Shown piece after piece: positions 21,159-51,037 of a DNA stretch of 64,000 nucleotides; position 1 is the stretch's first letter; each line of letters starts with the position of its first letter. The DNA lies in the NCBI RefSeq assembly GCF_044324785.1, contig NZ_CP172127.1; one strand, 5' to 3'. Under the pieces are notes generated by a model. The model saw only the letters and a list, made by a program, of their open reading frames with translations, was not told the origin of the DNA and made no database searches. The stretch is from Escherichia coli. Lineage in GTDB: Bacteria; Pseudomonadota; Gammaproteobacteria; Enterobacterales; Enterobacteriaceae. Position numbers and translations under genes: made by a program.

Positions 21159-21409
21159 TTACCCTGAACTGACGATACAACAAAGGCGCAACGCTTTTGA
21201 GATAAAGGATCGATGCTTTCACTGCTTTTACCCTCTACCATTAGGCTAATTGCGACGAGAAAGGGACGACCTATGAATACTAACGTTTTTCGACTGCTCC
21301 TGCTGGGAAGCCTGTTCAGCCTTAGCGCCTGTGTGCAGCAAAGCGAAGTGCGACAGATGAAACACAGCGTCAGCACGCTGAACCAGGAGATGACGCAACT
21401 CATTGACAT

Positions 21410-21434
21410 CCTCCACGCCCTGAAGGACGTGGAT
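21410..21434 (+). repeat. Subterminal hairpin of the IS (left copy of 14-nt direct repeat cgccctgaaggacg)
   Basis: Read directly; forms ccacgccc-tgaa-ggacgtgg stem-loop with one mismatch. Confidence 0.6.
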
Positions 21435-21445
21435 CCCTGCTACGT

Positions 21446-22653
21446 TCAGGCTGTCGCCTGAATCATTTCGGTGGGTTCCTGCTTCAACGGGCGGCCTGAC
21501 TGCACCATCCCTCCACAGGCAAGAACGGCGTGCCCCGCCGCTAAAATGTTACGAGCGCCATTTACATCGGCGTTCGCTGTATATCCACATACCTGGCATC
21601 TGAATTTACTTTGTGACAGGCGATTTTCTTTCGCTGTATGACCACAGCACGTGCAACGCTGGCTTGTGTACGCTGGCGAAACAGCAAGCACCTGACCGCC
21701 ACGCCAGAGCTGCTTGTACTCAAGCTGGCGGCGCATTTCATACCAGCCCTGATCCAGTATCGAACGGTTTAAACCTGATTTGCCCGGACATTGCGCCCCG
21801 GCTGGCTGACCGTACCCGCTGCTGACTTTGACATGTTGCTGACCTTCAAATCCTCAATGACTATCATTGCGTGGTTTTTGCTGACGGTCGTTGTGACTTT
21901 GTGAAGGTAGTCCCTGCGGATATTTGCGATACGGGAATGCAGTCGCTGTATTTTGCGTTTCTGCTTCTGCCAGTTGTTGCTGAATTTGACCTTGCGGCTT
22001 AACTGTCGCTGAAGTCTCGCCAGCGTCTTCTGGTTTTTCTGAAAACTGTTTACAGGCTCAAAGACTGTGCCATCTGACAGCGTGGCGAGTTTAGCCACGC
22101 CAGCATCCAGCCCGACCATTGATGCTGAAGGGTGAACCGGAGTTGATACTTCACTTTCTGTCTGAATACTGATGTACCACTTACCGCTGGACTGGCTGAC
22201 CGTGACATTTTTCACAACTCCCGTGACCTGACGGCTGTTCCGGTAGCGCATCCAGCCAAGTTTCGGCAGAAAAATACGGCTGTTTTCCTGATCGAGCTTA
22301 ACGCCCTGCGGGTAGCGGAATGCATCATTCTGTCCCCGCTTTTTGAATCGGGGAAAAGCAGCCCGCTTCCGGAAGAAGTTTTTGTAAGCCCGCTCAAGGT
22401 CTTTCAGTGACTGTTGCAATGGCTGTGAGGGCGAATCTTTAAGCCATTGCGTTTCAGTGGCGTTTTTCCACTCAACCAGCCAGGAAGCCATTTTCCCGTA
22501 AGGGATGTATTTATTACCGGCCTCATGATTCTCATTCTGAAGCGCCAGAGCACGATTGAAAACGAAACGACATGCGCCTGCGAAGCGCCTCATTTCACGC
22601 TCCTGTTGACCACCGGGTCTTAACTGGAATTTAAATGCCTGTAGTCGTTTCAC
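21446..22653 (-). pseudogene. tnpB: tnpB (OrfB, RNA-guided nuclease family) with -1 frameshift near 21780
   Basis: ORF track 21769..22653 (294 aa) and 21446..21736 (96 aa, zinc-finger CTCCGH...CQVCG) are contiguous TnpB sequence in different frames; plus-strand TTT run at 21779-21781 is one base short of the reading ...NVRAKSGLNRSILDQGW. Confidence 0.8.
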
Positions 22654-22675
22654 AGGTCAAATTATATTTTGGTCT

Positions 22676-23187
22676 GTGAAAAAAGAAACCGATATCCGGC
22701 GTGGAAGGCATTGTGTTTTCCTGATGCATGTTCACCTGGTCTTTGTCCCAAATACCGACGCCAGATTTTTGACCATGACGCGACAGAAAAACTACGCACT
22801 TACTTTTCAAATGTATGTGCTGATTTTGAAGCTGAACTGGTTGAAATGGATGGCGAACCAGATCACGTCCATTTGTTAATTAACTATCCTCCCAAACTGG
22901 CGATATCCAGTCTGGTAAACAGCCTCAAGGGCGTATCGAGTAGGTTACTGCGACGAGATCGACCAGATATTGCAGTCAGGTATTACGACAAAGGCGTTTT
23001 GTGGAGTCCTGGCTATTTTGTCAGTAGCTGCGGAGGTGCGCCAATATCCGTCATCCGCCAATACATTGAACAACAGCAAACACCTGGTCAGGTGAAAAAC
23101 CGCGCCTTATATCCCCGCCCTGAAGGACGGGGTTTTACGGCGCACCGGATAAAGAAACAGTCAAAATCACTCAGCAAAACAGGCTGA
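22676..23187 (+). pseudogene. tnpA: tnpA (IS200-type HUH/Y1 transposase) with frameshift near 22748-22752; 3' extent uncertain
   Basis: ORF track 22676..22879 carries ...HVHLVFVP, ORF track 22669..23187 carries KYRRQIF...DHVHLL...WSPGYFVSSCGG...YIEQQ; a single base is missing in the ccc/aaa homopolymer. Frame runs past the likely IS end. Confidence 0.7.
23112..23131 (+). repeat. Subterminal hairpin of the IS (right copy of the 14-nt direct repeat), followed by TTTT
   Basis: ccccgccc-tgaa-ggacgggg then tttt, read directly. Confidence 0.6.
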
Positions 23188-23856
23188 ATGCAAAATCCAG
23201 CAGTGGGGTTTACCTTCTGCCTGGAGCGAAAACACCGGCAAGACTGGAAAGCCAGATCGGTACTTTACGTATGTCGCTGGTGAATATTACGCCTGATACA
23301 GATGGCACCACCCTGACGCTACGTATTGAGGGCGAGTCGAATGATCCCTTGCCCGCATTCAGCGGAACTGTTGAATATGGGCAAATTCAGGGAACAATAG
23401 ACAACTTTCAGGAAATCAATGTGCAGAATCAATTGATTAACGCCCCTGCCAGCGTCCTCGCCCCCAGCGATGTTGATATTCCGTTACAGTTAAAGGGGAT
23501 TTCTGTGGATCAATTAGGCTTTGTACGTATCCACGACATTCAACCTGTTATGCATTAAACGTATTGCGGGGCAATTTTGTGCGTCCCGCAACATCTTTTC
23601 CCGTCATTTTGTTACTCCGCTTACATCACCTGGATTGATAGTAAAAGTTTGCAACAAGGGTGAAAGTCAGTACAATCCCCGCCCGAATGTGTGTAAACGT
23701 GAACGCAATCGATTACGTAAATGATAGAACTGTGAAACGAAACATATTTTTGTGAGCAATGATTTTTATAATAGGCTCCTCTGTATACGAAATATTTAGA
23801 AACGCAATTTGCGCCTTTTTCACTCCCGCAAGGGATTTTCAAACAGTGGCATACAT

Positions 23857-29648: not shown

Positions 29649-30719
29649 TTACTCCCCGACGCGCTCATTAATTGCCTGCGGATTGTACGTGATAAACATC
29701 GCATCACCGTAACTAAAAAAGCGATATTTCTCTTCTACCGCCGCTTTATAGGCATTCATGGTGTGTTGATAACCGGCAAAGGCCGAAACCAGCATAATCA
29801 GCGTCGACTCTGGCAAGTGGAAGTTCGTCACCAGCGCATCGACCACTTTGTACTGAAAGCCCGGATAGATAAAGATTTGGGTGTCGTCAAAGAACGGTTC
29901 GATGAGATCGTTTTTCGCCGCCTGAGCCGCGCTTTCCAGTGAACGTACCGAGGTGGTGCCAACCGCAATCACCCGGTTACCGCGCGCTTTCGCCGCCAGT
30001 ACCGCGTCTACCACATCCTGCGGCACTTCAGCGTATTCCGAGTGCATGATGTGATCTTCAATGGTGTCGACGCGCACCGGCTGGAAAGTACCCGCACCAA
30101 CGTGCAACGTCACAAACGCCATCTCCACGCCTTTGGCGCGCAATTTTTCCAGCAAAGGCTCGTCAAAATGCAGACCAGCGGTCGGGGCTGCAACCGCGCC
30201 CGGTTTTTCGCTATAAACTGTTTGATAAAGTTCGCGGTCAGCGTCTTCGTCCGGACGGTCGATATACGGCGGCAGTGGCATATGGCCGATGCTGTTGAGG
30301 ATATCCAGTACCGAACGATCATCATTAAATTCGACTTCAAACAGTGCGCCGTGGCGCGCAGTCATCGTTGCGTTGATACTTTCGTCATCGCCCAGCAGCA
30401 GTTCTGCGCCAGGTTTTGGCGCTTTCGAGGCGCGAATATGCGCAAGAATGCGTTTGTCGTCGAGCATCCGTTCAACCAGCACTTCAATCTTGCCGCCGCT
30501 GGCTTTACGCCCAAACAGGCGCGCCGGGATCACGCGGGTATTATTAAAAACCAGAAGATCGCCGGGGTTGAGCTTATCGAGTAAATCGGTGAAAGTACCG
30601 TGCGTCAGCGCGCCCGTCGGCCCGTCCAGCGACAGTAAACGACAGCTACTGCGTTCAGGCATCGGATAGTGGGCAATCAGGGATTCGGGCAATTCAAAGG
30701 AGAAATCGGTAACGCGCAT
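29649..30719 (-). CDS. queA: S-adenosylmethionine:tRNA ribosyltransferase-isomerase
   Basis: ORF track 356 aa. Confidence 0.95.
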
Positions 30720-30811
30720 GACACTGACTCAGACTAAAATAAGAGGCGGGTAGTCTAGTGCCGGGGCGCTCTCCCTGCAACCTTTACCCCCCTTTGGATA
30801 GAATATAATCG

Positions 30812-48296: not shown

Positions 48297-48752
48297 TTAT
48301 TCGCTACGGCGGGCAATAATTTTTAGCGCAGCAATATTATGCGTTTTACGCCGTAACTGATCTAATCGTCTCATCCCTATTCGCCTGTCAGCAGCACGCA
48401 GAATATTCACTAACCCCCATTTATCGCTGGTAAATTGTTTTGTTAACAGCTCCGCTTTTGGAGTATCAATATATTCACGCAATAAATCTGAAATTGAACA
48501 AATATCCGTCAGGTATGGATACCAGCAAGTTTCACCGTGAAAATTACGCACTCCACCGTTACCTGCAATAAAGTCTTTCGGGTAATCCCAGATCACGTTT
48601 TTATCCAACGTGATCCAATAACGAGGTAAATCGGTGCTTCCACCATTTTGGCTGCGCATGGGATAACGGGTACAGTGAATTTGCAGGTTGATCGTTGGCG
48701 TCAGTATGTCATAGATCTCCCGTTGTAACTTGCTCCATGGGCGTTGTGTCAT
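48297..48752 (-). CDS. Accessory gene: hypothetical 151-aa protein, translationally coupled to the upstream 762-aa gene
   Basis: ORF track 151 aa; ATG overlaps upstream stop (ATGA at 48749-48752); SD GAGGA in the upstream gene's last codons; may correspond to the short K-12 remnant ykiA (recollection, unverified). Confidence 0.7.
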   Translation of the reverse strand: MTQRPWSKLQREIYDILTPTINLQIHCTRYPMRSQNGGSTDLPRYWITLDKNVIWDYPKDFIAGNGGVRNFHGETCWYPYLTDICSISDLLREYIDTPKAELLTKQFTSDKWGLVNILRAADRRIGMRRLDQLRRKTHNIAALKIIARRSE

Positions 48753-51037
48753 TGTTTTTCCTCAAGCCGGTGACGCGCTTCACTGCGAATTTTCCGCGTT
48801 GCCCCTGTTTTCACTAAATCACGTAACAGCGAAAGATCGGGTTGATCGACAAATAAGAGTAATGATGGATCCTCTTTTAACCACGTCGTTTTCACATCGG
48901 CAGCCAACTGTGGATTATTAATAACCAACGCCCGATCCTGAGGCTCAGTCAATGTCGTTAACAAAGACGCCGGGGTATGTGCGTTGCGCAATGCCGTTTG
49001 GCGCAAATGATCATTGCGACTTTGCAGCAATGCACGCCACCATTCATCATCTGATTTATCTTTTATCGTAGCCAGTTCCGCAAAAATATCGCTATCCTCA
49101 CTGTTCCAGCGGTGTAGTCCTCTTTCACTTTGCCTACGGGTGCTATTTTTCATACTGACAACAGCCAGCGCCCAGTCAGAGTTGAAGCGATACTGTTGAT
49201 CGAGTTTGTTGATAATTCCGGAAGGTAAATCTTTATTATCAAATAATTGGTTACGCATTCGATAGCGGTATTCAGCGGGTAAATCAACCAGTAAATCAAT
49301 GGCATTATTTAACATCTCTTCGTCAACAACACCATTATCAATCAGCGCCAGCTGTACTTCATAGACTTGCTCTTGATCTTCTTGCCGTTTGCTCATCATT
49401 AAATTTAATGTGCGTTGCCATAATTGTTTTTTATATTCCAGCGGCAACAATTTATCGCGTGCCAGCTCATCCCAGACGGAGGGAATATCATGCTGAGTGA
49501 GTAGATAACTAATCACTTCCTTCGACGTCAGATAACGCGCACCTTCGCGTAAATTGTGCACATCTTCCTTTGCCAGAGACAGTTGACGCGACTCAGGTAA
49601 CGCTATCAATAACGCCTTCACGATATTTTTATTTTCTTTATTATCCAGATACATTTGTTCTGCGATACGTTCAATATCCTCTGTACGCAGGGTTGCTGAC
49701 AGTTGAGTAATTTTTAGTTCAGTAAGCGTCCGGGCTAATGCTTCACGAACTTTGAGTGATTTATCTTTACTCAACATCACAGCTTGTTGTGCGATTAAAT
49801 CTGCTCCGGTAATTCTTTCGCGTAACTCCGGGTCTTCACTATTTATCAACTCATCGACCACTGCAGTCGGAACCAGCCAGGCGTAATCGTAATGGCTAAT
49901 TAATGTCTTGCGCACACTGAGAAAAGGGCTATGACTTAATGCCGCAACAATATCAGGAGAAAGATTATCCTGTCTGGCCTGCTCCAGCTGTACGCTCTCG
50001 ACGGGTACAGACATTAATTTTTTATTCACTTCGGCGGAAATGTTACTGTTTTTAACCAGCCCTCTGGCAACAGCTTCATCTTTAATTAATTCATCGGTAA
50101 GCAAATGCATCTGTTGAGCGGGCCAGGACTGCGCCATCGATTCACGCGTCTGGTCATCGGGGTGCTGTAGCAGTTGCAGCATAACGGCGGTTGACAAACT
50201 TTCTATATGAGTCAGAAAACGTGCCACCAGTGGATCTTCATGCTTTATTTTATCCGCAGGGAAATTATCGAGTTTCCCCGTTTCAATCCATTTTAATTTC
50301 TCATTAATTTCAGGAGCGGCTTTATCTCGAAAAAGAGGTAAACCCTGAACGATATTGTCTGCGACGCTGTCATAGTCAGGATACGCATTGGAAATATTAT
50401 CGGTTTCGATTTCACTATGATCATAAAGATTAGGCGTCACCAGTGAATAGGCTTTTTGAATATTCTCATCCCAGTTATATTCTTCACCACTTCCATCTTC
50501 ATTGATATAAAATTCAGCTTTAATGACTTCAAATTGCGTTGCTTTATCGGAAACAATAATGCCTCGCGCACTAATTCCCTTCATCACTTCAAAGTTATGA
50601 TCATTGTAATCAGCATAAACTAAACCTTTCGCTGTCATCTGTCCTTTGACATACGCGAAATCATGATTAATAAAGTTATCGACAATAACATTACCTAATA
50701 CAATCAGATGACCATTACCTGACAGATAATCATCATAATCGCCGGAAATCGTTAAATTACCGTTCACCACCAGTTTATTTTGATTGCTGAAGTTAGCGGG
50801 TAATGATAGGTCACCATTATGATAATACCAGCGGATATTATCTTTTAGCATATAAGCAGCTTCCATACTATCGTCGGTTGCCGCTTTAACCACGTTGCGC
50901 TCATCTGCCGTCATAAGATGAAAGTCAGAGGTGATAAGGTCCTCGCTACTGATCCACTCTGTGGCACATGCATTGCCAGTCATAAAAAACACGACCATAC
51001 AGATGACCAATATTTTAATTCTATTCATAATCTTCAC
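48749..51037 (-). CDS. Accessory gene: hypothetical 762-aa exported protein (Sec-type signal peptide, Asn/Gly-rich beta-rich N-domain, long alpha-helical repeat C-domain)
   Basis: ORF track 762 aa; first codon is GTG, ATG at 51028 gives MNRIKILVICMVVFFMTGNACA|TEW; AT-rich relative to neighbours; not present in the K-12 rdgC–ppnP interval as recalled. Confidence 0.75.
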   Translation of the reverse strand: MKIMNRIKILVICMVVFFMTGNACATEWISSEDLITSDFHLMTADERNVVKAATDDSMEAAYMLKDNIRWYYHNGDLSLPANFSNQNKLVVNGNLTISGDYDDYLSGNGHLIVLGNVIVDNFINHDFAYVKGQMTAKGLVYADYNDHNFEVMKGISARGIIVSDKATQFEVIKAEFYINEDGSGEEYNWDENIQKAYSLVTPNLYDHSEIETDNISNAYPDYDSVADNIVQGLPLFRDKAAPEINEKLKWIETGKLDNFPADKIKHEDPLVARFLTHIESLSTAVMLQLLQHPDDQTRESMAQSWPAQQMHLLTDELIKDEAVARGLVKNSNISAEVNKKLMSVPVESVQLEQARQDNLSPDIVAALSHSPFLSVRKTLISHYDYAWLVPTAVVDELINSEDPELRERITGADLIAQQAVMLSKDKSLKVREALARTLTELKITQLSATLRTEDIERIAEQMYLDNKENKNIVKALLIALPESRQLSLAKEDVHNLREGARYLTSKEVISYLLTQHDIPSVWDELARDKLLPLEYKKQLWQRTLNLMMSKRQEDQEQVYEVQLALIDNGVVDEEMLNNAIDLLVDLPAEYRYRMRNQLFDNKDLPSGIINKLDQQYRFNSDWALAVVSMKNSTRRQSERGLHRWNSEDSDIFAELATIKDKSDDEWWRALLQSRNDHLRQTALRNAHTPASLLTTLTEPQDRALVINNPQLAADVKTTWLKEDPSLLLFVDQPDLSLLRDLVKTGATRKIRSEARHRLEEKQ

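Follow-up and report, generated by a model that had tools for sequence, protein, structure and literature searches.

In this strain of Escherichia coli, IS609 interrupts yajI, a lipoprotein gene (DUF3251, SadB/YajI family); it is the sole insertion sequence seen in the window—that is, the whole 64-kb stretch of DNA that we analyzed. Alignment to the uninterrupted yajI of E. coli KE55 reveals a clean insertion of 1,746 bp, with no overlap and no target duplication (Table 1). The inserted DNA is 97.8% identical over its full length to the K-12 MG1655 feature annotated "insertion sequence:IS609," above the >95% nucleotide identity to a reference copy that is the usual ISfinder rule for assigning the same element. 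The K-12 copy measures 1,748 bp, and the 2 bp by which the window copy is shorter are exactly its two deletions. All the hallmarks of the IS200/IS605 family are present: a Y1 (HUH) transposase TnpA, a TnpB/OrfB protein with HTH, OrfB_IS605, and zinc-ribbon TNB domains, imperfect hairpins near both ends, and insertion on the 3' side of a short conserved motif. In keeping with the family, the copy lacks terminal inverted repeats and duplicates no target sequence. The element is the catalogued IS609, in an ordinary decayed copy; annotation of IS609 copies with a tnpA pseudogene is routine, yncK of K-12 being one example.

Table 1. Features of the yajI locus and its IS609 copy, with positions in the window
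Feature	Position	Strand	Basis and details
yajI, 5' part	21273..21402	+	Alignment to intact KE55 yajI; partial DUF3251 pseudogene in annotated E. coli genomes with the same insertion
Complete IS609 copy (IS200/IS605 family), 1,746 bp	21403..23148	- (element orientation = tnpB sense strand)	Boundaries from the empty yajI site of E. coli KE55
Probable guide-RNA (omega-RNA) scaffold region, inferred	21390..21573	-	Overlaps tnpB 3' end and RE; Rfam matches all sub-threshold
RE hairpin	21412..21433	-	TCCACGTCC-TTCA-GGGCGTGGA; 9 nt before the terminal ...GTCAA; single-strand DNA fold -14.6 kcal/mol, z = -4.11
tnpB 3' part, out of frame	21446..21778	-	Zinc-ribbon/TNB domain and third RuvC motif; Pfam Cas12f1-like_TNB 3.2e-23
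tnpB frameshift site	21779..21781	-	Plus strand TTT vs. TTTT in other IS609 copies (gene sense AAAA to AAA); alignments
tnpB (insQ) 5' fragment	21769..22653	-	GTG start, 294 codons: 1-291 native, then 3 out of frame before the stop (ORF list)
tnpA 5' fragment	22676..22746	+	GTG start at 22676; first 24 codons MKKETDIRRGRHCVFLMHVHLVFV
tnpA frameshift site	22746..22749	+	GTCCC vs. GTCACC in intact copies; lone A lost (frame shift at 22746/22747)
tnpA remainder, shifted frame	22747..23187	+	HUH motif (DHVHLL) and catalytic Tyr (IRQYIEQQ); Pfam Y1_Tnp 3.9e-38
LE hairpin	23102..23143	-	Core stem-loop CCCCGTCC-TTCA-GGGCGGGG at 23113-23132; single-strand DNA fold -14.7 kcal/mol, z = -2.88
TTTAT, insertion target	23149..23153	-	Directly 5' of LE; same pentamer beside K-12 IS609 at a different locus
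yajI, 3' part	23149..23558	+	Alignment to intact KE55 yajI; annotations as for the 5' part

Read on the minus strand, IS609 starts CCGGTGCGCCGTAAAACCCCGTCC... straight after TTTAT and finishes ...GGAGGATGTCAA, the last letters being GTCAA, and the sequence GTCCTTCAGGGCG is common to the hairpins at its left (LE) and right (RE) ends. The TTTAT pentamer at which the element inserted is probably also its TAM, the motif for recognition by the TnpB nuclease.

Both genes of this copy are frameshifted, each by the loss of a single base. An earlier note on this DNA had located the two lesions at the TTT of positions 21779-21781 in tnpB and in a CCC/AAA tract at 22747-22752 in tnpA, and alignment to other E. 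coli copies of the element confirms both positions. The note had further ascribed both to base losses within homopolymers. For tnpB this is right: TTTT is present in three other yajI copies (L001, L002, and L006) and in the K-12 copy, and it has become TTT in the window. For tnpA it is not, as the missing base is the lone A of GTC-A-CC. Because that A stood between C's, the CCC run was made by the deletion and is not what remains of a longer homopolymer.

The codons at this site are GTC ACC AAA TAC in the yajI copy of L001 and GTC ACC AGA TAC in K-12, as against GTC CCA AAT AC in the window, L002, and L006. Intact copies read GTCACCAAATAC in L001 and GTCACCAGATAC in K-12, between ydcL and ydcO, and the window has GTCCCAAATAC; the reading VFVPKYRR with which the earlier note had restored tnpA needs correction, since intact copies have VFVTKYRR, with T in place of P. 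Beyond the deletion the shifted frame reads KYRRQIF...DHVHLL...IRQYIEQQ, so that the HUH motif and the catalytic tyrosine both lie downstream of the lesion, and the repaired TnpA aligns to the IS608 TnpA structure 2a6m (E=1.2e-21). The frameshift at codon 25 is the only obvious lesion in the window's tnpA. No exact match to the 172-aa tnpA ORF was found in the protein collection. The tnpA frame meets no stop codon within IS609: it continues through the LE hairpin and reaches its end 39 nt inside yajI, so insertions at different sites would give TnpA different C-terminal tails.

What does the frameshifted tnpB still encode? Its ORF ends ...PGRNVRANQV before the stop codon and retains two Pfam domains, HTH_OrfB_IS605 (2.5e-14) and OrfB_IS605 (8.2e-35), and the part beyond the shift enters the ORF list as a 96-aa frame (21446-21736) that starts at an internal ATG. 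Adding one base yields a 402-aa TnpB reading ...RAKSGLNRSILDQGW... across the site, residues 3-376 of which align to the ISDra2 TnpB structures 8bf8/8exa/8h1j (E=2.8e-56). RuvC motifs one and two (GLDAG and VIEDL) align upstream of the frameshift, whereas the third (NADVN) and the CxxC...CxxC zinc ribbon fall beyond it, out of frame. The native reading stops after residue 291, and no single polypeptide contains the complete RuvC D-E-D triad together with the zinc finger. Because the stop precedes the zinc ribbon and the third RuvC aspartate, the encoded TnpB is without part of its active site, and its nuclease activity has probably been lost. On the tnpB strand, Rfam matches pile up over the 3' end of the gene and RE, with HgcC (E=0.012), RAGATH-18 (E=0.022), and sot0042 (E=0.23) all sub-threshold and no family at its gathering threshold. 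This placement fits where the guide RNA of TnpB would be expected; sot0042 is described as a sense-overlapping transcript.

How widely are the two deletions distributed? The tnpA allele, searched for as an exact 81-mer across the site, is shared by 209 complete E. coli records, with IAI39, SMS-3-5, and CE10 among them, and RefSeq labels tnpA "frameshifted" in L002 and SMS-3-5. The tnpB allele was found in 0 of 5,254 matching E. coli records, and exact 41-mer scans of GTDB representative genomes and JGI metagenomes did not find it either. An exact-protein look-up of the truncated ORFs led to ENA/Logan contigs, with a further 19 similar places beyond the matches listed; all five contigs examined among the matches listed (L003, L004, L008, L009, and L010) carry both deletions. 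These contigs were assembled independently from different samples (ERR11474860, ERZ21846171, ERZ28576316 [a 362-kb scaffold], ERR11819501, and SRR9971503). Four of them match the window at 100% identity over 1.0-6.3 kb; the remaining one, L003, differs at 5 of 1,659 positions. The comparison with further copies of the element that the earlier note had proposed thus supports the first of its two readings, genuine inactivation of the element, as each of the one-base deletions recurs in independent genomes or contigs.

The insertion itself occurs in a minority of the species. An 80-mer specific to the yajI-RE junction is present in 340 of 5,426 complete E. coli genomes, and most E. coli genomes carry IS609 at ydcL-ydcO, not in yajI. 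A 2-kb query had initially pointed to a near-universal yajI insertion, with 4,307 genomes at >=80% coverage; 87% of that query is IS sequence, and the count is uninformative about the yajI site because any IS609 copy in a genome adds to it. SMS-3-5, TUM1886, and Z1323HEC0462 have the insertion at the same site and in the same orientation. A literature search on yajI or insQ together with TnpB found no study of the yajI IS609 locus.

We hold with high confidence that the locus as a whole is an immobile fossil, an IS609 copy in yajI that decayed in two separate steps. In the sequence of events that we propose, IS609 would have inserted 3' of TTTAT in an ancestor common to a minority of E. coli lineages. 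A single A would then have been lost from codon 25 of tnpA (GTC-ACC to GTC-CC), an old and inherited change that broke the Y1/HUH transposase. With tnpA broken, the copy would no longer be self-mobile, and it is predicted from the frameshift to be unable to transpose; its ends and hairpins are intact, and at most it might be mobilized by TnpA from elsewhere. Truncation of TnpB/InsQ, the RNA-guided nuclease, would have followed later, when the A run at tnpB codons 291/292 contracted from A4 to A3 in the clone to which the window belongs. Loss of the transposase would thus have left the copy immobile, and its remaining gene would have decayed. The order of the two deletions is read from their distribution: the tnpA deletion is probably old because it is wide among the lineages that bear the junction, and the tnpB deletion is probably recent because it is confined to the window's near-clonal lineage, in which tnpB has only two other lineage-specific codon changes. 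The loss of both activities is likewise what the sequences imply.

Was the tnpA deletion inherited only once? TnpA is inactive in all five IS609 copies that we compared (the window's at 22676-23148, L001, L002, L006, and L007), with three lesions in differing combinations: stops at codons 70 and 90 and the codon 25 frameshift. The codon 90 stop is found both in K-12, at ydcL-ydcO, and in SMS-3-5, at yajI; L001 and L002 both have the codon 70 stop, and only L002 of the two has the frameshift. Because the lesions are mixed in this way, recombination or recurrent mutation among copies has probably taken place, and the pattern suggests gene conversion between IS609 copies. The shared frameshift might by the same token have arisen several times or spread by conversion, and not through descent of a single yajI::IS609 copy. 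We consider this unlikely, although it has the mixed lesions in its favor, because the deletion lies in an identical context, within the same yajI copy, in every case examined (L002, L006, the window, and the Logan/ENA contigs), and exact repetition of a one-base deletion outside any homopolymer is itself improbable. Vertical descent of the tnpA deletion appears to be the simplest reading, if an unproven one.

The other four copies retain an intact tnpB of 402 aa, which hints that tnpB may persist without a transposase of its own. Pairwise dN/dS for tnpB is 0.14-0.33 over the five copies (the window's after repair), a sample too small to separate present from past selection on the gene. That insQ is under purifying selection across E. 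coli despite the dead tnpA of the five copies examined is a doubtful proposition on these numbers; if true, TnpB would have a function independent of its own transposase, and the clone of the window would be a natural knockout.

Could the interruptions themselves be functional? Slippage by the ribosome or RNA polymerase might restore full-length TnpB or TnpA, or the 291-residue TnpB might act as a TldR-like, nuclease-dead, RNA-guided DNA binder, an idea to which the retained HTH/WED/REC region and first two RuvC motifs lend some appeal. Known TldR proteins have reportedly lost RuvC active-site residues. We regard either possibility as very improbable. Neither site has an X-XXY-YYZ slippery heptamer, and the A/T runs are too short for transcriptional slippage; we rejected programmed frameshifting for want of a slippery motif. 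The truncated allele, in turn, is confined to one near-clonal lineage and absent from the 5,254 E. coli records counted above, and therefore shows no sign of selective retention. A TldR-like derivative would be expected to be conserved between lineages in its inactivated form and tied to a target gene of the host, whereas the truncating allele was seen in a single near-clonal set of contigs. Moreover, the only match for a guide drawn from the RE flank would be an uninterrupted yajI site, and this genome has none.

Finally, the second reading offered by the earlier note, that the frameshifts stem from miscalled homopolymers in the assembly of an element that is really intact, is scarcely credible: it can appeal to the short T run in tnpB, to the resemblance of the tnpA site to a CCC/AAA tract after the deletion, and to the absence of the tnpB allele from all complete E. 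coli genomes, GTDB representatives, and JGI metagenomes searched, but against it stand the 209 complete genomes with the tnpA allele, the five independently assembled contigs in which the two deletions occur together (four match the window at 100% identity), run lengths of only 3-4 bases, a tnpA loss that lies outside any homopolymer, and a window in which no other annotated CDS compared with KE55 is frameshifted. A systematic error common to the independent contigs is very unlikely, because they come from different runs and assemblers and the runs concerned are so short. As for the other genes, the earlier note had called the neighbors of the element intact, and the comparison with KE55 agrees, with no net frameshifting indel in any other annotated KE55 CDS over the aligned parts of the window; indels within genes are limited to in-frame repeats or to compensated pairs in one divergent gene. 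On this evidence taken together, both deletions are genuine, and the assembly is not prone to homopolymer errors.

Several other differences from known genomes lie elsewhere in the window. The core genes from cyoABCDE to nrdR that flank the element at positions 1-21400 have at most 98.3% identity to any of the 5,426 complete E. coli genomes and match several ENA/Logan contigs at 100% identity; the lineage of the window seems to be absent from the complete RefSeq E. coli genomes. Given this distance from complete E. coli genomes, a Shigella origin was considered; it is unlikely, since IS609 is the one insertion sequence seen in the window and none of the annotated KE55 genes compared is frameshifted. 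Positions 30812-32042, inside a gene for a "hypothetical protein" (KE55 locus 29787-31244), have 93.6% identity to KE55, with neighbors at ~98%, and contain paired compensating indels. On the minus strand at 48297-51037, a 762-aa ORF lies beside a 151-aa ORF; the longer is largely missing from KE55, which has only a truncated DUF2773 pseudogene at the matching position. At 16300-16310, a GCAGAC hexanucleotide repeat within a pentapeptide-repeat gene (annotated EspY3 in some strains) has two extra in-frame insertions of three bases relative to KE55.

For annotation, the locus is best recorded as a split yajI containing an IS609 whose two genes are pseudogenes; at the positions of the tnpA and tnpB deletions the assembly is trustworthy. 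The exact boundaries, the TTTAT target, and a natural tnpB-null allele may be useful for work on InsQ/TnpB in E. coli, and the two deletions, being of differing ages, could serve as lineage markers.

How does this copy compare with known elements? The closest reference, the IS609 of K-12 MG1655 (1503161-1504908; yncK is the tnpA pseudogene and insQ is tnpB), has the same termini (CCGGTGCGCC...GGATGTCAA), the same 5' flank TTTAT, the same divergent arrangement of tnpA and tnpB, and likewise a tnpA pseudogene. It differs in its locus, ydcL-ydcO instead of yajI, and in how its genes have fared: the tnpA lesion is an in-frame stop (codon 90) in K-12 and the frameshift at codon 25 in the window, and insQ is intact in K-12 (402 aa) but frameshifted in the window. 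The single K-12 copy showed zero transposition in mutation-accumulation lines (PMC5009759). Among yajI::IS609 copies, those of SMS-3-5, IAI39, CE10, and others—the 209 records described above—share the one-base tnpA deletion. The yajI copies of TUM1886, Z1323HEC0462, and SMS-3-5 have an intact tnpB and an additional internal stop in tnpA, whereas the window copy has a frameshifted tnpB and no tnpA stop. The mechanistic models of the IS200/IS605 family are IS608 of Helicobacter pylori and ISDra2 of Deinococcus radiodurans. The window copy resembles them in its Y1/HUH TnpA (E ~1e-21 to IS608 TnpA, 2a6m) and TnpB (E=2.8e-56 to ISDra2 TnpB, 8exa), in the hairpins near both ends, in the lack of target duplication, and in insertion 3' of a short motif; the right end of IS608 likewise finishes in TCAA. 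It is unlike them in that tnpA and tnpB are divergent, as they are in IS605, and not co-directional, in that its target is TTTAT (that of IS608 is TTAC), and in that both of its genes are inactivated.
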